Assembly (NCBI GenBank): GCA_043290085.1
Contig: CM091797.1
Span: forward strand, 22,302,880-22,366,879
Direction of reading: 5' to 3'
Source: Rhynchocyon petersi
Taxonomy: Eukaryota
Length of the DNA: 64,000 nt
Shown one piece after another: positions 7,441 through 56,249 of the stretch (position 1 is the first letter of the stretch; each line of letters begins with the position of its first letter). The notes beneath the pieces were generated by a model. It worked only from the letters and a program-made list of their open reading frames with translations, was not told the origin of the DNA and did not search any database. A program made the translations under genes and the position numbers.

Positions 7441-7480
7441 CCAGTAAAGTGCATGTGGTAAGGAGAGAGGTGGTGGTGGT

Positions 7481-7650
7481 GTACCGTTGAGTCGTGAACG
7501 ACTCATAGTGACCCTCCCGAGGGTTTCCGGAGGCGGTATCTCACACGGAAGTAGAAACCACTCTTTCTCCCGCGGAGCAGCTGGCAGGTTTGAACCGCGT
7601 GCCATTGGGCTTGCAGCGCAGCTCTTTCACCACTAGGCCATACCAGCTGC
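7481..7650 (-). mobile_element. AfroSINE-type SINE (reverse orientation), preceded by (GGT)n
   Basis: gtaccgttgagtcgtgaacgactcatagtgaccctcccgagggtttccggaggcggtatctcacacggaagtagaaaccactctttctcccgcggagcagctggcaggtttgaaccgcgtgccattgggcttgcagcgcagctctttcaccactaggccataccagctg. Confidence 0.8.
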
Positions 7651-7734
7651 CCAAGGAGGGGGGAGAGGTGAGAAATAGGACATTTTTTTTTTTCTTTTCT
7701 TAAGTTTTTATTTTAATTTTTTTTTTTTTTAAAG

Positions 7735-14027: not shown

Positions 14028-14223
14028 GCGTGCATGCTTGTCTTTCAACCAGATTTCAAGCTCACTGTCCCCGAAGCCGCCGAGAAGAGTGAACTGATTA
14101 TCTGCCTTGATTGTTCCAACTCTATGAGTGGTGAGGCATTCTCTCAAGCCAAGAAGATTGCCTTATATGCGCTGACCCTGGTGGCTAAGGAGCAAAAAAT
14201 AAATATTGTCAAGTTCGGCACAG
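14028..14223 (+). CDS. VWA5B-like exon, start of VWA domain (ACMLVFQPDFKLTVPEAAEKSELIICLDCSNSMSGEAFSQAKKIALYALTLVAKEQKINIVKFGT)
   Basis: The acceptor is cttgtag| and the donor is aca g|gtaagg. The motif LDCSNSMSG corresponds to the VWA MIDAS DxSxSM of VWA5A (FLMDRSGSM). It ends in phase 1. Confidence 0.75.
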
Positions 14224-14535
14224 GTAAGGATTCTTTGGCTCTATGACAAAGTGAGCATCCTCTTTCTATCAGCACACTCTTGGGAAGAGCTGAAACTGTG
14301 AACTTGAACTTATTTGTAAGTGTGAGAGGGGGCATAAGGTTAAAGATCTCTGGAGCCAAATGGTCTGGTTTCAACTGCCAGCAGTACCACTTACTCATGG
14401 AATCACCATGTCTCGGAATCGACTCGATGACAACAACAAAAGCACCACCCACTTGTGGCTGCATGTACCACCTTATTCCAGTAACTTAAACTGCTGAAGT
14501 GTCCGTTTTCTCATCTGAAAATGAAGTTTGGTGGG

Positions 14536-14696
14536 GTACCGTCGAGTCGTGAACGACTCAGAGTGACCCTCCCGAGAGTTTCCGGAGGCAGTATCTCACA
14601 CGGAAGTAGAAACCACTCTTTCCCCCGCGGAGCAGCTGGCAGGTTTGAACGATGTGCCTTTGGGCTTGCAGCGCAGCTCTTTCACCACTAGGCCAT
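14536..14696 (-). mobile_element. AfroSINE-type SINE (reverse orientation)
   Basis: gtaccgtcgagtcgtgaacgactcagagtgaccctcccgagagtttccggaggcagtatctcacacggaagtagaaacc...ccactaggccat. Confidence 0.75.
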
Positions 14697-15165
14697 TGTT
14701 GTTTGTTGTTGTTATGTGCCGTCGAGTCGAAGACGACTCATAGCGACCCCATGAACAGCAGACCTGAATTGCGCCCTATCCTGAGCCATCCTCACCATCT
14801 TCGACACACGCACGCCCGTCACTGCAGCAACCGTATCGATCCATCTAGTCGAGGGTCTACCCCTTCCTCTCCCACCCTCCACCTTTCCAAACATGATGTC
14901 CCTCTCCAGGGACCGGTCTCTCCTGGCAACATGTCCGAAATACGTGAGGCGGAGCTTCACCACCCTTGCCTCCAGGGAGCACTCCGGCTGGATCCTCTCC
15001 AGAACATACTTATTCGTTTTCTTGGCCATCCATGGGACATTGAGAACTCTTCTCCAACACCACAGCTCAAAGGCATCAATTCTTCGTCTGTCGTCCTTAG
15101 TCATTGTCCAACTCTCAGATGCATGGGTAGCGATTGAGAATACCATAGTTTGGATCAGACGCATG
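14697..15165 (-). mobile_element. RTE 3' fragment (minus), the inverted partner of the RTE at 16228-17600
   Basis: The minus ORF 14712-15164 reads MRLIQTMVFSIATHASESWTMTKDDRRRIDAFELWCWRRVLNVPWMAKKTNKYVLERIQPECSLEARVVKLRLTYFGHVARRDRSLERDIMFGKVEGGRGRGRPSTRWIDTVAAVTG...AVHGVAMSRLRLDGT. It is about 94 percent identical at the nucleotide level to the reverse complement of 17130-17590. Confidence 0.8.
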
Positions 15166-16140: not shown

Positions 16141-16227
16141 AGTTAGTCAGTGAGAATACACTATTATTTAAAAGATTACTATTTTTAAATGATCAAACAT
16201 AATCTTCTTAAAAGTAAGGTGTTTTTG

Positions 16228-17600
16228 TTCTCTAGTGCCAACTGACTGGAAAAGATCCATATTTGTCCTGATTCCTAAAAAAGGGGATCCCAAAGAATGC
16301 GGAAATTACCAAACAATATCACTGATATCGCATGCAAGTAAAATTCTGTTGAGGGTCATCCGAAAGCGATTGGATCAGCACATTGAGAGGGAATTGCCAG
16401 AGTGTCAGGCTGGTTTTAGAAGGGGCCAGGGTACCAGGGACATCATCGCAGATGTTAGATGGATCCTGGCTCAGAGTAAGGAGTACCAGAAGAATGTGTA
16501 CCTCTGCTTCATTGACTATGCAAAGGCATTTGACTGTGTGGACCACAACAAACTATGGCTCATGTTGAGGAAAATGGGAATTCCAGAACACTTGATCGTG
16601 CTCATGCACAATCTGTATCTAGATCAAGAAGCTGTGGTAAGAACAGAGCACGGGAACACTGCATGGTTCAAGGTCAGGAAAGGTGTGCGCCAGGGTTGCA
16701 TCCTGTCCCCATACCTATTCAACCTGTATGCGGAGCAGATTATCCGGGAAGCGGGACTCTATGAGGAGGAGCGTAGCATTGGGATTGGAGGAAGATGCAT
16801 CAACAACTTGCGATACGCAGATGACACAACCCTGCTTGCTGAAAGTGAGGAAGACTTGAAGGCTCTGCTGCATAGAATTAAGGAGTGCAGTCTGCAATAT
16901 GGATTGAAGCTGAATCTCAGGAAAACCAAGATCCTTGCTACTGGGCCAATAGGGGATGTCATAGTGGATGAAGAGAGGATTGAAAATGTCAGGGATTTCA
17001 TATTGCTTGGATCCACAGTCAACACCCTTGGCACTAGCAGCCAAGAGGTCAGGAGATGTATCACATTAGCAAAGGCTGCAGTTAGAGACCTCGCCAAGGT
17101 CCTGAGGAGTAAGGACATCAGCTTGAAGACAAAGGTGCATCTGATCCAAACTATGGTCTTCTCAATCGCTACCCATGCATCTGAGAGTTGGACAATGACT
17201 AAGGATGACAGAAGAAGGATTGATGCCTTTGAGCTGTGGTGGTGGAGAAGAGTTCTCAATATCCCTTGGATGGCCAAGAAAAGGAACAAGTATGTTCTGG
17301 AGAGGATCCAGCCGGAGTGTTCCCTGGAGGCAAGGGTGGTGAAGCTCCGCCTCACGTATTTTGGACATGTTGCCAGGAGGGACCGGTCCCTGGAGAGGGA
17401 CGTCATGTTTGGAAAGGTGGAGGGTAGGAGAGGAAGGGGTAGGCCCTCGACTAGATGGATAGATACGGTTGCTGCAGTGATGGGTGTGGATGTGTCGGAG
17501 ATGGTGAGGATGGCTCAGGATAGGGCGCATTTCAGGTCTGCTGTTCATAGGGTCGCTATGAGTCGTCTTCGACTCGACGGCACATAACAACAACAACAGT
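16228..17600 (+). mobile_element. RTE/BovB-type LINE, 5'-truncated copy with an intact 450-aa RT-domain ORF (16235-17587)
   Basis: It is an uninterrupted ORF containing the RT motifs FIDYAKAFDCVDHNKLW, QGCILSPYLFNLYAEQI and YADDTTLLAES, plus the conserved C-terminus LRLTYFGHVARRDRSLERDVMFGKVEGRRGRGRPSTRWIDTV...FRSAVHRVAMSRLRLDGT. The tail is cacataacaacaacaac. The intact frame implies a young insertion. Confidence 0.9.
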
Positions 17601-25009: not shown

Positions 25010-25170
25010 CGTCGAGTCGTGAACGACTCATGGTGACTCTCCCGAGGGTTTCCCAGAGGCAGTATCATGAGCATGGGAGTAGAAGCCACTCTTTCTCCCA
25101 TGGAGCAGCTGGTGGGTTTGAACCGCGTGCCTTTGGGTTGGCAGCGCAGCTCCTTTACCACTAGGCCACA
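25008..25170 (-). mobile_element. AfroSINE-type SINE (reverse orientation)
   Basis: ttaccgtcgagtcgtgaacgactcatggtgactctcccgagggtttcccagaggcagtatcatgagcatgggagtagaagccactctttctcccatggagcagctggtgggtttgaaccgcgtgcctttgggttggcagcgcagctcctttaccactaggccac. Confidence 0.8.
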
Positions 25171-25314
25171 GCGTAGCGGGTGGTTAACCAAGAGGGTCGG
25201 AGAGCTTTTGAGTTTCATGGGGAGAGGAAATTGCTGAAGCAATCGCCCTTAGACTAACCATGACACTGCGGAGTAGAAAAGCTGATGAAAAACCCTCTTT
25301 TTCCCCCAATTCAG

Positions 25315-31536: not shown

Positions 31537-31757
31537 AATCCTTATAAAAGGCCTCCACTTCTGACAGGCCATTTGTCAGTGTGAAGTCCTCAGTACAGGG
31601 CCCAGCCCCCAGGAAGGGATCCAGTAGGAATGTTACTGGTAGCTAATCATACACACAGTTATATTCCAGACTAAATGTTCACAATCTTTACAATATAGAA
31701 TGATAATTTCACTTGATGATGTCTGTTTTGCTTTAACCCCATTGTGATTCAATACAG

Positions 31758-31880
31758 AACGAGAATGAGTCACCTTTGCCTGATACTCCCAATATTTCAG
31801 ACCTCACTGCTAAAGAAGATGTGGACTTTCTGCCGTATATACCGTGGCAGGAGGAGCAATCTGATGACAGCACAGCACAC
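31758..31880 (+). CDS. VWA5B-like exon (NENESPLPDTPNISDLTAKEDVDFLPYIPWQEEQSDDSTAH)
   Basis: The acceptor is ttcaatacag| and the donor is cac|gtaaat. It is 123 nt in phase 0, and the open frame is clean. It is colinear with the VWA5A post-VWA region. Similarity is low. Confidence 0.55.
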
Positions 31881-36642: not shown

Positions 36643-37748
36643 GAACACCAGAAGGATGTCTAATGTTTCATTGACTATGCAAAGGCATTTGTGTGGATCA
36701 CAACAACAAACTATCGCTAACGTTGAGGAGAATGGGAATTCCAGAACACTTAATTGTTCTCATGCAAAATCTTTACTTAGATCAAGAGGCTGTCATCCAA
36801 ACAGAACACGGGAATACTGTGTGGTTCAAAATCAAGAAAGGCGTGCGTCAAGGCTGTATCCTGTCCCCATCCCTAGTCAATCTGTATATGGAGCAAATTA
36901 TTCGGGAAGCAGGACTCTATGAGGAAGAGCGTGGTGTCAGGATTGGAGGAAGGTGCATCAACAACGTGCGATATGCAGATGACACAACTCTGTTTGCTGA
37001 GAGTGAGGAGGACCTGAAAGTTCTGTTGCAGAGGCTTAAGGACTACAGTCTTCAATATGGACTGTGGTTACACCTCAAGAAAACTAAGATCCTCACCACT
37101 GGGCCAATAGGGAACATTGTAATTGATGGAGAGAGGATTGAAACTGTCAACGATTTCATCTTGCTTGGTTCCGCAGTCAGCACCTCTGGCACCAGCAGTC
37201 AAGAAATCAAAAGACATATCACATTGGGAAAGGCTGCTGTTGTAGACCTCTCCAAGGTCCTGAAGAGTAAAGATGTCAGTTTGAGGACAAAGGCGCACCT
37301 GATACAAACCATGGTCTTCTCCATCACTGGCTATGCATCTGAGAGTTGGACAGTGACTAGAGATGACAGAAGAAGAATCGATGCCTTCGAGCTGTGGTGT
37401 TGGAGCAGAGTGCTCAATGTCCCATGGATGGCCAAGAGAACAAACAAATATGTTCTGGAAAGAGTTCAACCAGAGTGCTCTTTGGAGGCAAGGATGGTGA
37501 AGCTTCGTCTCACATATGTTGGTCATGTTAGGAGAGGCCAGTCCCTGGAGAAGGACATTATGCTTGGGAAGGTGGAGGGTCAGAGGAAGAGGGGCAGATC
37601 CTCGACTAGATGGATAGACAGAGTGACTGCAGTGATGGGCTCGAGTGTGTCAGGGATGGTGAGGATGGGGCAGGATAGGTTCAGTTTCAGATCTGCTGTT
37701 TATAGGGTAGCTATGAGTCATCCTCGACTCGAGGGCACATAACAACAT
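36643..37748 (+). mobile_element. RTE copy (RT to 3' end), 349-aa ORF 36693-37742
   Basis: It starts at FIDYAKAF and continues with ..MDHNNKLSLTLRRMGIPEHLIVLMQNLYLDQEAVIQTEHGNTVWFKIKKGVRQGCILSPSLVNLYMEQIIREAGLYEEERGVRIGGRCINNVRYADDTTLFAESEEDLKVLLQRLKDYSLQYGL...LRLTYVGHVRRGQSLEKDIMLGKVEGQRKRGRSSTRWIDRVTAVMG..FRSAVYRVAMSHPRLEGT. The tail is cacataacaacattg. It is nearly intact. Confidence 0.9.
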
Positions 37749-38125: not shown

Positions 38126-38435
38126 AATAATAGAGATGCCCATAAGATGAACAATAATAACACTAGCGAGGTGCTCACTCCTTTGAACAATCAACCATAG
38201 AAGAGCAAAAGAGCAATATTTGTTTGGGGATAATATTAAAAAGTTTGGAAGTGGTAACACAGAAGAATTAATGGAAATGCGAAACACAAGGGGGGGGTGG
38301 GAAGTATGCGATGATATTGTAGATGTTGCAGTTACAGCCACGTAACAAAATATATATGATTCTTAAGCCTGTTGGTTTGATGTCAATTTTATTGCATAGT
38401 TTCTCCTTACATTATTATCATTCTCTGTTCTGTAG

Positions 38436-40157
38436 ACACGTTCCTTGGAATGGAATAAAATACTTCAAAAACAATGTTACAGAAAACGAATACTTTTAAG
38501 CAAGCAGAAGGTTGCTGACGATGTTGAAAAGGTTGATTTTGCTACACAAGCACCAGTACAAATTCAAACATTCGATTCTAAACATGCAGTCATGGCAAAA
38601 CCATTGGATTTAAGTCAGGTGGCCTCATTTGAAAACACAAAATTTAAAGCACATTCCTTTCCATTCCCCAAAATTCAAGGCCTTCGTTCAATTACACCAA
38701 CCCCCTTCGCTGCCTCTCATCGTGCTTCTGGTACCCTATTTTCTTTCTGCTCGCCTCTGAAATCTCTTCTCCCTTGTTTGAGTAGTTTCAGAGAGTCTGG
38801 TCTATCTAGGCATGACCAAGACCTTGACACTGATCATTCTGACAGTGTCCTGGAGGGGGCCTCCCTACCCAGACCCAGGCTGCCTACCCAGAACCCACCT
38901 ATTCCAGTTCCCGTTGGTGCTCCTGCGCCACCTCCCTTGTTCCGTATTCCGGCTCCTGCTAGTGCTCCTGTGCCACCTCCCTTGTTTGGTATTCCGGCTC
39001 CTCCGCCACTTCCCTTGTCCGGTATCCCGGCTCCTGCTAGTGCTCCTGTGCCACCTCCCTTGTTCGGTATTCCGGCTCCTGCTAGTGCTCCTCCGCCACC
39101 TCCCTTGTTTGATCCTCCGGCTCCCGCTAGTGCTTCTGTGCCACCTCCCTTGTTCCGTATTCCGGCTCCCGCTAGTGCTCCTGTGCCACCTCCCTTGTTT
39201 GGTATTCCGGCTCCTCCGCCACTTCCCTTGTCCGGTATCCCGGCTCCTGCTAGTGCTCCTGTGCCACCTCCCTTGTTCGGTATTCCGGCTCCTCCTAGTG
39301 CTCCTCCGCCACCTCCCTTGTTTGATCCTCCGGCTCCCGCTAGTGCTCCTGTGCCACCTCCCTTGTTCCGTATTCTGGCTCCTGCTAGTGCTCCTGTGCC
39401 ACCTCCCTTGTTTGGTATTCCGGCTCCTCCGCCACTTCCCTTGTCCGGTATCCCGGCTCCTGCTAGTGCTCCTGTGCCACCTGCCTTGTTCGGTATTCCG
39501 GCTCCTGCTAGTGCTCCTCCGCCACCTCCCTTGTTTGATCCTCCGGCTCCCGCTAGTGCTCCTGTGCCAGCTCCCTTGTATGGTTCCCTAGCTAGAACTG
39601 AACAAGCTAAAATTTACCAAGACCGTGAGCTGTCCAGTGAGGCTGACATTTCCAGCGAAAAGGACCCTGTTCGCAGATCACGTGCGCACCCTTGTAAATT
39701 CTCAACCCAGAGTTCTGACAAATTCTTTCACTCTCCTGGTGTTCTTTATGATCAAAGTTCTGTGGTTCCTCTGGGCGCTACATCCACACCACCAGACAAT
39801 TCACTTGGTTTTGCTGGCAGCGCCCCAGGAATTTATTTTTTATCCAGCATTTCTACTCGAAGTACATTATTGGGTCCCCCTTCAAGTGGCCTGCCGACCA
39901 ACTCAAGTCAAGAAAAGTCACATGATTGGCAAATTCCTGAACAGCGCCAACAAAATGACTTTCCTAAATGTCTGCTAGAACATGGGAGAGATTGTTTACT
40001 GGCACTGCATGACGGAGAGGATGATGAGGATGACAATTATGACATGCTTGTTGAGGATTACGATGATGGCATGGAAGATGAGGATGATGAGGACGACAGG
40101 GTCTGCCAAGAAAACTGGAGCAGTGTTGCACCTGAACTTTTCAGTCTGCAGACCGAG
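38436..40157 (+). CDS. VWA5B-like large insertion exon, about 574 codons. It is a unique N-terminal part, then 3 x 71-aa Pro-rich tandem repeat, then a Ser/Pro-rich region, then a poly-acidic DGEDDEDDNYDMLVEDYDDGMEDEDDEDD tail
   Basis: The acceptor ctgttctgtag| sits immediately after an in-frame tag, and phase 0 matches the previous donor. The ORF runs uninterrupted to the stop at 40194-40196. A candidate phase-0 donor lies at gag|gtattc (40157). The C-terminal part (..CLLALHDGEDDEDDNYDMLVEDY..SSVAPELFSLQTE) is colinear with VWA5A HLVQLIYHQNANGSWDLNEDLAKILG..AAQPAELVDSSG. The 3' boundary is uncertain (see findings). Confidence 0.75.
38928..39566 (+). repeat. Coding tandem repeat, 3 x 213 nt (unit starts 38928, 39141 and 39354) at about 97-99 percent identity
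   Basis: The unit encodes PPPLFRIPAPASAPVPPPLFGIPAPPPLPLSGIPAPASAPVPPPLFGIPAPASAPPPPPLFDPPAPASA(S/P)V. Each unit is itself built from 4 sub-repeats of about 16-18 aa (P-A-P-A-S-A-P-V-P-P-P-L-F-G-I). The Leu-rich ORF 38812-39591 in another frame is a by-product. Confidence 0.95.
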
Positions 40158-40423
40158 GTATTCGCCTTATTTCGCTCTAACTCTGCAGTGAATTAGCTTC
40201 AGAATTTAGGAGGGAACTACTCAGAGTAACCAGTCAATGAACACTTATAACCAGTTTACTTATCTTGGGGACGTAAAGTGATTTGTGCCAGGATGTCAGT
40301 CAGCGGGCCATTTCCTTCATCAAGGAAATTTTGTTACCAATTAATAAATAAGTCAGCAGAACTAAAGAGGGACGTGATGTATTTGACAGGAGTTCTCCAA
40401 TTAACTATAACTTAGAATTACAG

Positions 40424-41092: not shown

Positions 41093-42134
41093 TCTGCAGA
41101 GTACCTGTAAGAACAGTCTTCTTACAGAAGTTGTGTAAAAGATCAGAGTTCACTTTGGATTTGTCACATATCATTTGACTTTTGAATTTTTAAAATTTGT
41201 GCCATTGCCATAGATCCTCTAACTTTGCACCTGCCCATGATTGGATCCTCATTTCTGTTCTCCAGAGACTTGGGGGGCTCCGTCTACTTCAAGCTTTGAC
41301 TCCCCATCCTCAGGCCCTCTGTGCTTTCTTAGAATGTGATGAAAATGGGCCTTGGAAGCAGTGACTCAGCTGAGTCAGGCAGGAGATGGTAGATACAAAG
41401 AAGTGTGTATGTAGCTTTAAAACTGCAGCTTAATCTTGTAATTTTAAATTTAGAAAAATATGGTCTTCAAGCTTCAGATTCTAGAAGGCCAGTCTCTTTA
41501 TGTCCAACAGAAGGGGTCGTGATATGTGTAAAAGACTGGCGGAATGGCTCAAGACACAGCTTTTCTAGCTTTTAGTTTTTCTAAGAATATGGATAGTACT
41601 GTTTTTAAAATTCTTTCTGCCTCCAGAAACACTCGGGAGGGTCAGTATGAGTCGCTCACGACTCAACGATACCTCCCACACCACACCTTCTTTCTAGTAG
41701 TTCTAATACCTGGGGTGGGGGGAGTTTATGGTGTTGGTGAGAATCAAAACAAAGCCGTGTCACTAGTCTGTGAAACACTTAATTCCGTGGTAATACAGTT
41801 TCAGAAATGTTTTCAATAACTGAGTTGAAATAAGGCAAACTCATTCTATTTCTTTTTTAAAAAATTTTTATTTAAATGCATATTTGTAACATTCAGTATA
41901 CTTACCCAGGTGACTATAGGATTACAATGTAGGATTATAACATTCAGTATACTAGTTTATGTGATTAAATTCTTACAATATGACTTAAATTTATTTTCTT
42001 CATCTCATAATAGGATGGCTTCTGGAAACTTACTCCAGAACTGGGATTTTTATTAAAACTTGATATAAATCTATTAAGATGCTTTCTTGAAGAAAAAGGC
42101 ATTCGGTCCCTAGGTAAGATGCTTTCTAGGTAAG

Positions 42135-49188: not shown

Positions 49189-49618
49189 GTGTAAGTTACC
49201 ACTTGTTGCACTCACAATTTCTACATGACATGACAAAGGAAGATGTAGAAAATGAACATTAGCAATTAATATTAATAATATGATGAACACAAAGCCAAAG
49301 TTGAGTTTTTTACGATATGCAGCTCTTGCTCGTCAGTTGTTACTGGTTTATATGATAGAAACAAATACAGTCCTCGAACACACTCACTGCTACTGAGTCA
49401 GAACCAACTCATAACTGACCATTTAGTGGGTTTTCCGAGGCTGTAAATTGCACAGGAGGAGACTGCCCATCTTTCTCCCACAGAGAGGCTGGTGGGTTTG
49501 AATGACCAGAGAGGTGTGGCCTTGGGCTAGCAGTACAACGCCCTGTAGACTAGACCACCAGAGCTCTTTACATGCAGTCCACACAATGCTAAGCAGGTAG
49601 AATTCCTGGCACAGCAGA

Positions 49619-49638
49619 GTGTGTGTGTGTGTGTGTGT
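49619..49638. repeat. (GT)n microsatellite, about 10 units
   Basis: It is a perfect run abutting the SINE. Confidence 0.9.
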
Positions 49639-49806
49639 ACCGTCGAGTCGTGAACGACACATAGTGACCCTCCCGAGGGTTTCCAGAGGCGGTATCTCAC
49701 ACGGAAGTAGAAACCACTCTTTCTCCCGCGGAGCAGCTGGCAGGTTTGAACCCCGTGCCTTTGGGCTTGCAGCGCAGCTCTTTCACCACTAGGCCATACC
49801 AGCTGC
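49637..49806 (-). mobile_element. AfroSINE-type SINE (reverse orientation)
   Basis: gtaccgtcgagtcgtgaacgacacatagtgaccctcccgagggtttccagaggcggtatctcacacggaagtagaaaccactctttctcccgcggagcagctggcaggtttgaaccccgtgcctttgggcttgcagcgcagctctttcaccactaggccataccagctgc. Confidence 0.85.
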
Positions 49807-50225
49807 AGAGTGAGCAAAAAGCCCAATTTGAAAAATGGTACTTGCATTGGTGTTTGAAGAACGGATAGGACTTAGATTGGTGAGTGTGGAAAGGGGATGA
49901 CAGCAAACACTTGGAAGCTGGAGGAAGCCGAATTATCCTTGATCCAGCAGGAGACACAGAAGTATAGTGTAAGTTAGGGACCAGTGGGTGTGATTATGTG
50001 AAAACTAATTAACTTGAATGTCAGTTGTCAGTAGGCTGATGGGAGAACTTTCTCAAAATGTCAGAGAATTGTTTATGTTCAGTGTTGAAGCGATATTTTC
50101 GTCTCTTAATTTTTGACAGAATTCTTTTGTTTGATGTAAGATGCTAGATTTCATGCTCTGTTGCATTTCACACGCAATTATATTCTGAAATCAATCTAAA
50201 GTCTATGATTTTTTTTTAAATCTAG

Positions 50226-50421
50226 GACTATTCCCTGTTATACTGAAGAAATAAAGAGAGCCAGTGAATGGGCAAGAAGAGCGGAAGGACGCTATCCATC
50301 TATCTGCCGGCGGCTGGAGCTGGGGAAAGACTGGGATTCTGCCACAAAGCAGCTGCTGAGAATCCAGCCCCTACACCCCACTTCTCCTCTTTACAGAGTC
50401 CTTAACAGCAATCACGGGTGA
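50226..50421 (+). CDS. VWA5B-like terminal coding exon (R TIPCYTEEIKRASEWARRAEGRYPSICRRLELGKDWDSATKQLLRIQPLHPTSPLYRVLNSNHG*)
   Basis: The acceptor is tttaaatctag|. It completes the 2-nt carry-over from 46722 as agg. The peptide aligns to the VWA5A C-terminus LERKAVAWMRAHAG... The stop tga is at 50419-50421. Confidence 0.65.
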
Positions 50422-54289: not shown

Positions 54290-55290
54290 CAGTTTCTTTA
54301 CTGTCACCTTTCACCAGAGCTGCAACTCGCACCGCTCATGCGCAGTCAGCTTCGCGCGTCCATGCCCAGCCCCGCCCCTCCAGAAGGCGGGGCCGTGATC
54401 TCCACTGGGCTGGAGAGCGCCACGCAGGCGCAGTCGGGAAGCCTTCGCTGAGCCTCGCCTACCTTTTCCTCTCGCGCGGCGGGTGGGCGGGCGGCTGCGC
54501 CAGTGGTGGTTGAGCGCGGTTGGCGCCTGCGACGGGGGTCCTGGGCCCCGGCCAGGGCTCAGCAGCACGGAGGTGCAGGGTATCGCCGAGGGCCCCGGGC
54601 TGGGCGCCGCCAGCAGCGTCCGCCTCGGGGCCTCGGCGGCTCCCGGGCCTGCTCCGGCCTGCGTCCCGGCTCCGGCGCAGCAGCTGACCCTGCTGGTGAT
54701 GCGCCCCTGCGGAGGGCAGGACGAGGTTGCAGCCGGGGGCGTCCTTCGGCCGGCGGCGGGCCAGCCGGTCCAGTACCTTTGCGACGCGGCGGGGGAGGCC
54801 GACGATGACGGGGGCGACGACGAGGCGGATCTTCTGGACACCTCGGACCCCCCGGGCGGCGGCGAGAGCACGGCTAGTTTGGAGGATCTGGAGGACGAGG
54901 AGACGCACTCCGGGGGCGAGGGCGGCGGCGGGGCCCGGGGTCTGGGCGGCGGCGCGGGCAGCACGAGCAAGACCTGCACGTACGAGGGCTGCAGCGAGAC
55001 CACCAGCCAGGTGGCCAAGCAGCGCAAGCCGTGGATGTGCAAGAAGCACCGCAACAAGATGTACAAGGACAAGTACAAGAAGAAGAAGAACGACCAGGCC
55101 CTGAGCTGTGGCGGGGCCGCCTCGGCCGCCAGCGCGGGGAGCGTCAAGCTGGAGGTACGAATCCCAGCGGGGCCGTGGGGATCGCCAGGAGGAGGAGGAC
55201 ACCCCTCCCCGTCCCGCTGTGAACCCCATTTCCAGGACCTCTGTCTCCTACGGGGCCAGACTACACCGCGAGCGCTGACCCCAAGGTCAA
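54290..55290 (+). promoter_or_regulatory. CpG island, the promoter and first exon region of the downstream gene
   Basis: It shows an abrupt switch to a GC-rich, CpG-dense sequence. GC boxes are present (ccccgcccc at about 54372, ggcggggcc at about 54386). SINE and LINE density drops, and the coding exon follows. Confidence 0.8.
54699..55154 (+). CDS. First coding exon of an unidentified gene (MRPCGGQDEVAAGGVLRPAAGQPVQYLCDAAGEADDDGGDDEADLLDTSDPPGGGESTASLEDLEDEETHSGGEGGGGARGLGGGAGSTSKTCTYEGCSETTSQVAKQRKPWMCKKHRNKMYKDKYKKKKNDQALSCGGAASAASAGSVKLE)
   Basis: It is a long ORF with strongly GC3-biased codon usage (aag, cag, ggc, tgc), unlike a random GC-rich ORF. ATG is in a gtgATGc context. It ends at ctg gag|gtacga, a good donor. 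The opposite-strand ORFs here are mirror artefacts. The start codon is uncertain, since the ORF extends upstream to 54483. Confidence 0.6.
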
Positions 55291-56249
55291 GTTTGTATGC
55301 ACGTGTTGCACCCGTCTGGTGGGCGAATGATTTTAAAGGGAAATGTGATACATCAGCGTGTCTGTCATTGGAAAGAGCTGGAGCAGACAGGAAATGATCG
55401 GTGTTATCACGAAAGGGGCGGGCATAGACTTATCCTAGGTGAAACTGGGATTTTGGAAAAGATGATGGATGGTCTTGGCTTCCTTACCTGTTGCCCTACT
55501 CACCGAGAGGTCAGCAGTTTGAATCCACCAGCTTTCCCGGGAGAGACGGACAGATAAGACCGTCTCCTATCCTTAAGATTAGAGCCTCCCGAACCCAAGC
55601 GAGGGTCGCTCTGAGCCAGAATCTACTTGCAGGCAGTTGGTTTGGGTTTTGTCTTTTGTCTTAGGGTAGCAGGGACCTTGGTTGTGCAGTGGTTAAGCGC
55701 TCGCCCCTAACTGAAATGCGTTTGATTGGAACTTGCTGGCAGTGTGCTACGGGACACATTACATCGTTGGAAACCTTTCAGCTCTCTCCTTTTGGGCCTA
55801 TAAGAGTTGGCATCCTCAGGATGGTGGGGAATTTTATTCTCAGGGCTCTAGTCCTTAGTATCCTGCTCTCACTGCCTCCTATTTTAGTACCAAAATCGTA
55901 GCACTTCTAAGGAGTTGAACCTTGAGGCCTGGATCTTAAAAAGACTTTGAGTTGATTTGAACTGTTTTGTTGGAGGTTAGCCAGTACTCTGGAGGTGAAC
56001 TTCAAGCAGGAAATGTACCTTCATTTGCTAGCAGTGTGGTCTTGAAGAAGCTGTTAAAACTGTCTAAGGCTCATCAGCTGCTTCATCTGTAGAATGGCCA
56101 TTAAAGTAGTATCTATTTCATAGTGTTGCTGTGAAGATGTGAGAGTCTAGTGTCCAGTAGTAAAATTCTGGAGACCTTAGCCATTATTACTGTTTATGTT
56201 ATTAACAAACCGGGGGGGGTGATTTCTGGGGGTAGCATGCAGTGGTGGG

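Follow-up and report, generated by a model that had tools for sequence, protein, structure and literature searches.

Coding minisatellites with higher-order structure are a general class in proline-rich proteins. The array described here resembles this class and lies in a 64,000-nt stretch of Rhynchocyon petersi DNA (assembly GCA_043290085.1, contig CM091797.1, positions 22,302,880 to 22,366,879; hereafter the window, with coordinates counted from its first letter), inside a large exon of the gene for PARP4, also known as vault PARP or vault poly(ADP-ribose) polymerase. In our assessment, we are probably dealing with an in-frame coding minisatellite that is specific to its lineage, belongs to the hypervariable PARP4 exon, originated in two steps, and represents a near-neutral lengthening of a disordered tether.

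In human PARP4, the corresponding exon is exon 30, which covers residues 1223-1582 and has a ratio of non-synonymous to synonymous substitution rates (dN/dS) above 1 (PMC4038475). It is the only part of PARP4 under positive selection in primates and bats (Daugherty, Young, Kerns, Malik 2014, PMC4038475). It is almost wholly disordered by prediction (JPRED, for the human sequence), its "sequence and length … is highly variable among vertebrates," and it has been proposed as a host-pathogen interface (PMC4038475). Downstream of it, cryo-EM places the C-terminal MINT domain (human residues 1562-1724) near the waist of the vault, where repeat domains of MVP anchor it on either side, and long disordered regions link the folded domains of PARP4 in the vault lumen (PMC12280208). 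The four domains of the protein were defined without mention of a proline-rich array (Kickhoefer 1999), and no description of such an array in PARP4/VPARP was found in the literature searched. The hypervariability of the exon is already published; a tandem array as its cause in one lineage is new with respect to that literature.

The proline-rich array of the large PARP4 exon

The host gene is PARP4. Its concatenated VIT/VWA exons match PARP4 of many vertebrates (E 1e-213 to 1e-100, 60-88% identity), the flanking exons as a whole being 60-90% identical to PARP4. C-terminal PARP4 fragments from primates and rodents, placed by tblastn, complete an exon order that runs from VIT and VWA through the large exon to MVP-interaction and the C-terminus. 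The large exon, the equivalent of human exon 30, spans 38436-40157 on the + strand and comprises 1722 nt, or 574 codons, in phase 0-0. It is bounded by a pyrimidine tract with the acceptor AG at 38434-38435 and by the donor GT at 40158-40159, and it follows the VIT/VWA exons and precedes those of the MVP-binding (MINT) part, which is the position of exon 30 in human. The conserved anchors of the exon are present as well, with PLDLSQ near its start and ELFSLQTE at its end, joined to DGFWKL. A protein search with the whole open reading frame (ORF) gave no match at E <= 0.001 in the best 8000 candidates, which were probably filled by unrelated proline-rich proteins; orthologues were found via the neighbouring exons, and via the non-repeat flanks together with the C-terminal exons. 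No identical record exists for the genomic ORF, whether read from its TTG or from its ATG start.

In codon register, the array occupies 38901-39584 (+ strand) and is composed of 16 sub-repeats, which amount to 684 nt and 228 aa. Proline accounts for 42% of its residues and alanine for 18%, while the only charged residues are three Arg and three Asp. Tandem Repeats Finder (TRF) detects a period of 213 nt (3.2 copies, 97% matches, 0% indels, score 1279) at 38909-39579, with periods of 45 and 33 nt nested inside it, and a repeat search returns copies spaced, in register, by 45, 45, 45, 33, and 45 nt, a pattern that recurs. A 23-nt core of the repeat has 13 occurrences with <=3 mismatches, all of them in 38919-39580 and none elsewhere in the 64-kb window, and no matches in dinucleotide-preserving shuffles. 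The initial annotation had placed unit starts at 38928, 39141, and 39354, a valid phase with 213-nt spacing; the repeat is also in frame with the exon, as had been claimed (38928-38436 = 492 = 3 x 164). The repeat itself is thus real, but the limits first given to it, 38928-39566, fall slightly short of the full array.

Three higher-order units of 213 nt (71 aa) follow each other on the + strand at 38946-39158, 39159-39371, and 39372-39584. Unit 2 differs from unit 1 at 3 positions, and unit 3 differs from units 1 and 2 at 7 and 8, which corresponds to 98.6, 96.7, and 96.2% identity per 213 positions in codon register. Substitutions private to one unit are found at 1, 2, and 6 sites in units 1, 2, and 3, and three of the differences of unit 3 lie in its last 5 nt, that is, at the 3' edge of the array, which ends in PAPLYG. 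The units are preceded by a leading sub-repeat, E0 (IPVPVGAPAPPPLFR; 38901-38945, + strand), which is more diverged, with 34-38 of 45 nt identical to the other 45-mers, and forms the old 5' edge of the array.

Each 71-aa unit consists of five sub-repeats of 15+11+15+15+15 aa (45/33/45/45/45 nt), named A1, B1, C1, D1, and E1 in unit 1, and not of four sub-repeats of 16-18 aa, as had been proposed. Sub-repeats A and C read IPAPASAPVPPPLFG (15 aa each), D reads IPAPASAPPPPPLFD (15 aa), and E reads PPAPASAPVPPPLFR (15 aa), whereas B, with the 11 residues IPAPPPLPLSG, corresponds to the 45-mer minus 12 nt. The ends of the sub-repeats vary between LFG, LFR, LFD, LSG, and LYG. Sub-repeats in the same position of different units are identical at 44-45 of 45 nt and share their codon choices, whereas different sub-repeats inside one unit are identical at 35-43 of 45 nt. 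The array thus has the features of a coding minisatellite: its units are head to tail and free of spacers, their length is a multiple of three, and identity between blocks exceeds identity within them.

Some further features of the same nucleotides can be mentioned here. The 259-aa ORF that runs through the array in another frame (38812-39591) is a by-product of the stop-free repeat, and the reverse strand over the array contains no ORF of at least 80 aa. At several sub-repeat junctions (38986-38992 and equivalents), the sequence TTTG/GTATTCC shares GTATTC with the donor of the exon, GAG/GTATTCG at 40158; these junctions are possible cryptic donors, the use of which would shift the frame.

Orthologues, putative seed motif, and probable origin

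The exon encodes 574 aa in R. petersi and 346 aa if the array is left out, being about 210 aa longer than its primate or bat equivalents. The human exon has 360 aa, those of ten bats 345-365 aa, and that of an orangutan fragment about 370 aa; in two murid sequences it reaches about 450 aa, and it measures 287 aa in a bird, 217 aa in a snake, and 69 aa in a gecko. This panel of orthologues is small, with PARP4 proteins of up to ~950 aa, and exon identities place the window in a placental mammal to which no member of the panel is closely related, a sloth fragment being only marginally closer than the rest. The array is absent from the orthologues examined, in line with the lineage specificity suggested before: the motif is single-copy in primates and bats, and the short array of rodents is of another kind.

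The likely seed of the array is a motif of the type FGSAAPPRQFD / LFGSLASPKQFDPP, present once in primates and bats. In hominoids, one FGSAAPPRQFDAS occupies the place that the array has in R. petersi, Old World monkeys have FGFAPPPRQLAAS, with PPRQL rather than PPRQF, bats have a single SLFGSLASPKQFDPP, and the mammalian PARP4 fragment P0125 has a single TFGSPVPPRQFDPP. The single-copy motif aligns to the start of the array, and the C-D-E part of the unit (LFG-IPAPASAPPPPPLFD-PPAP) resembles it. That this motif seeded the array remains a tentative reading, because the aligned region is low in complexity and evolves fast.

In murid rodents, roughly this position is taken up by an array of their own, with 4-5 degenerate units that are of the GGTHLPPPxxLFG type and 10-12 aa long (P0006 and P0017, the former 84% identical to the Mus pahari PARP4-like protein P0124). 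Since their linker differs from the one found here, this amplification looks independent of the R. petersi array. In the same exon of P0125, at residues of about 185-235 and downstream of the single-copy FGSPVPPRQFDPP, there is a mini-array with three copies of SLPVPPPPIPP. Local amplification of proline-rich motifs in the large PARP4 exon may be recurrent across mammals.

The array probably arose in two steps. In the first, a 45-nt (15-aa) motif of the IPAPASAPVPPPLFG type would have been amplified to about six copies, its source probably being one FG-x-(A/P)-PP-x-x-F-D-P motif, which other placental mammals have in the corresponding position; the copies would then have diverged, and one of them would have lost 12 nt. 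In the second step, much later, the block of five sub-repeats (213 nt) would have been triplicated by slippage or unequal exchange. It is the higher identity across units than within a unit that points to an old 45-nt array and a recent block triplication, and the fact that codon choices were copied together with the amino acids argues for duplication at the level of DNA instead of convergence at the level of the protein. The recent expansion or homogenisation suggested by the initial annotation agrees with these identities. If 1-2 x 10^-9 substitutions per site per year are assumed, a rate of our own choosing, and gene conversion is taken to be absent, the triplication would date back a few million to about ten million years.

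Between units, 7-8 changes are non-synonymous and 1-2 synonymous, over nine variable sites. The resulting point estimate of dN/dS, 1.4-3.3, is indistinguishable from 1 (p = 0.21-0.49) when the units are compared only with each other. We infer that the array evolves near-neutrally, without detectable purifying selection, in which it would resemble what is known of the remainder of the exon.

Proposed tether lengthening and its alternatives

In a single-sequence AlphaFold2 model of the exon, the mean pLDDT (predicted local distance difference test) is 41.7, and residues 29-508 of the exon form no secondary structure. The 228-aa product is probably polyproline-II-like, without predicted secondary structure, and ends about 190 residues upstream of the end of the exon. 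It would be part of the disordered tether by which the VIT/VWA portion of PARP4 is connected to the C-terminal MINT domain, the anchor of the protein on the inner wall of the vault. The likeliest effect of the array would be to lengthen this tether. A polyproline-II helix extends 3.1 Å per residue, and the vault is about 67 nm long; the contour could grow by as much as about 22 nm with each 71-aa unit, which is large in relation to the vault. Near-neutral lengthening of the tether is favoured because the differences between units are mostly non-synonymous and compatible with neutrality, and because Pfam assigns no family to the large exon at E <= 1 and the likeness to FG nucleoporins disappears once composition is corrected for.

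Several points weigh against this interpretation. Nine variable sites are too few to separate neutrality from positive selection, and both the inclusion of the exon and the exact copy number are taken from the assembly sequence alone. The evidence that a single-sequence AlphaFold model gives for disorder is weak, although it agrees with the JPRED prediction for human, and the positional homology of the seed motif depends on the alignment of a fast-evolving, low-complexity region. Finally, the independent amplification of a PPPxLFG-type motif at the same place in murids hints that the motif may matter beyond the length that it adds.

The last point leads to the main rival of the tether reading, namely that the array is a multivalent platform of short linear motifs, the copy number of which was raised for avidity, and which would recruit a proline-recognition partner to the vault or serve as a decoy or target surface for a viral protein. 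Pattern matching finds 12 PPxxF (the Homer-type EVH1 pattern), three PPLP (class II WW), three PPPPP (profilin-type), and six FG inside the array, and PPxxF, PPLP, and PPPPP are absent from the rest of the large exon. Primates, bats, and P0125 have each retained one PP-x-x-F(D/G) core, the murid amplification gives the idea some support, and the exon has been proposed as a host-pathogen interface (PMC4038475). On the other hand, such short patterns match by chance in any proline-rich sequence, and a pattern match in a proline-rich array is not evidence of binding. The seed position of Old World monkeys holds PPRQL and not PPRQF, the terminal residue varies among the sub-repeats, there is no Pfam FH1 match, and most PARP4 is located in the vault lumen (PMC12280208), where partners of this kind are not known to reside. 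The likeness to profilin, WW, SH3, or FH1 ligands that had been pointed out is weak and based on composition: PPLP, PPPPP, and PPxxF do match, and the array has no SH3 class I/II ([RKY]xxPxxP, PxxPx[KR]), PPxY, or class I EVH1 ([FYWL]PxPP) pattern. Taken together, we regard the platform as unlikely, though no other rival is more probable.

A more specific form of the idea, in which FG-x-PP-x-x-F-D/G is a functional motif whose valency was raised independently here (16 copies) and in murids (4-5), selected for avidity to a cellular or viral partner, is slightly less probable still. If it were true, changes in repeat number would be, besides point substitution, a mode of the proposed arms race between PARP4 and viruses.

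About equally doubtful is an error in the copy number of the assembly, through collapse or artificial expansion, with the true allele having another number of 213-nt units. With 96-99% identity across their 213 nt, the units are difficult for short reads to tell apart. Yet each of the three has private substitutions, whereas an artificial copy would equal its source, and the edges of the array (E0 and E3) degrade gradually, as they do in a real one. Copy-number polymorphism or assembly collapse is plausible, as had been noted. If the copy number does vary within the species, the alleles would provide a natural series for asking whether tether length or motif valency influences the placement or activity of PARP4 in vaults.

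It is very improbable that the array acts in the manner of FG repeats, as a cohesive domain that would either bind transport receptors or build a cohesive phase inside the vault. A HMMER scan of 1.84 billion representative proteins with the exon yielded five proteins at E <= 0.001, none of them PARP4, and two of the five (P0129 and P0130) are FG nucleoporins with PLFGAP-type repeats. The other three are unrelated repetitive proteins, which indicates that the HMMER scores are artefacts of periodicity and composition. With composition adjustment, BLASTP gives E = 0.56 against P0130, Pfam Nucleoporin_FG has no match at E <= 1, and FG is present in only 6 of the 16 sub-repeats, so that membership in the nucleoporin FG family was rejected.

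The idea that the array belongs to a VWA5B-type gene, which was the frame of the initial annotation and fits the VIT and VWA domains upstream, as in VWA5 proteins, is refuted, given that the named best matches of the flanking exons are nearly all PARP4, with VWA5A and VWA5B absent among them, and that the C-terminal exons encode the PARP4-specific MVP-interaction domain (MVP-ID).

Genomic context and comparison with described systems

The remaining exons of PARP4 extend over much of the window. Stop-free segments of the + strand place VIT exons at ~1.5, 2.4, and 4.3 kb and VWA exons at 14.0, 19.4, and 23.8 kb, among them the VWA-domain exon at 14028-14237 (+ strand), which contains LIICLDCSNSMSG and was found by similarity search and tblastn. 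With tblastn, an exon ending in EDVDFLPYIPWQEE is followed by the gap that holds the large exon, by the DGFWKLTPELG exon, by two more MVP-interaction exons, and by the C-terminus at 50418. The upstream exon, ending in NESPLPDTPNISDLTAKEDVDFLPYIPWQEE, lies at 31755-31856 (+), and the first exon after the large one, DGFWKLTPELGFLLKLDINLLRCFLEEKGIRSLG, which is part of the MINT domain, at 42014-42115 (+), the limits of both being approximate. Orthologues of the downstream exons have the Pfam domain PF26156 (PARP4 MVP-ID C-terminal). The last coding stretch, found by tblastn at 50221-50418 (+), contains ICRRLELGKDWDSATKQLL and ends in NSNHG before the stop codon.

A second, smaller repeat is located in the large exon at 40009-40107 (+ strand), with a period of 27 nt and 2.4 copies according to TRF. 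It encodes the acidic, D/E-rich DGEDDEDDNYDMLVEDYDDGMEDEDDEDD, just upstream of the conserved ELFSLQTE, where the orthologues are acidic too, without repeats.

The introns of PARP4 contain two ORFs for reverse transcriptases, at 16193-17584 (+) and 36693-37742 (+), which match Pfam RVT_1 with E values of 1.7e-37 and 7.6e-19. Both correspond to a long interspersed nuclear element (LINE) of RTE/BovB-like type, and the second ends ~700 nt upstream of the large exon. A tRNA-derived short interspersed nuclear element (SINE) is present as well, in dozens of copies, for example at 7448-7700, 14485-14740, 25037-25234, and 49601-49865, and the LINE fragments end in a common tail that translates as HRVAMSRPQLDGT. 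The SINE and the LINE tail resemble the AfroSINE/RTE pairing of afrotherian mammals.

About 4 kb past the PARP4 stop, a 304-aa ORF (54483-55397, + strand) matches Pfam RFXA_RFXANK_bdg (PF15289; E 1.7e-28, profile positions 1-74 of 122). It looks like exon 1 of RFXAP, accompanied by its CpG island (GC-rich at ~54.0-55.5 kb). In human, RFXAP and PARP4 are about 12 Mb apart on chromosome 13, so the gene order may differ in this species.

With the formin FH1 region (PF06346), the array shares a proline-rich, repetitive sequence and short poly-proline runs followed by hydrophobic residues, but it has only three runs of five prolines, no adjacent FH2 domain, and the context of a vault enzyme. Membership in that family was rejected, as PF06346 does not match and the downstream exons encode the MINT domain and not FH2; the murid arrays have FH1 scores of 25.7 and 19.6 bits, below the cut-off of 40. 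Nucleoporin FG regions (PF13634) have in common with it a periodic hydrophobic-FG motif and an uncharged, low-complexity linker, but the repeat regions of the matches P0129 and P0130, judged by eye, are mostly Thr, Ala, Gly, and Asn, as opposed to 42% Pro here.

Among PARP4 proteins, the murid GGTHLPPPxxLFG arrays are comparable with the one in R. petersi. They are found in the same exon and at roughly the same position, and they too are built head to tail around a PPP-x-LFG core, but their unit is 10-12 aa long, they lack a higher-order unit, and their linker is THL, compared with IPAPASAPV here. They hint at a conserved motif; otherwise, there is nothing out of the ordinary in a coding minisatellite of this kind, given a disordered region that tolerates change and is expected to vary in length.

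With exon 30 as known from other species (PMC4038475), the R. petersi exon agrees in position, in the anchors PLDLSQ and ELFSLQTE/DGFWKL, in its predicted disorder, and in differing in length. What was reported for exon 30 in that study are point substitutions and length variability without a tandem array, whereas the exon described here owes 40% of its length to a proline-rich repeat of 16 copies, in which 213 nt were recently triplicated. Besides correcting the annotation from VWA5B to PARP4, the array offers a concrete route to length variability of the exon, through block amplification of a proline-rich motif that is single-copy in other mammals. It is the coding minisatellites of proline-rich proteins that it resembles most: as in these, the copies are head to tail and in frame, those at the edges are more diverged, blocks of diverged sub-repeats have been duplicated, and variation in copy number is expected, with nothing essential setting the array apart from them.

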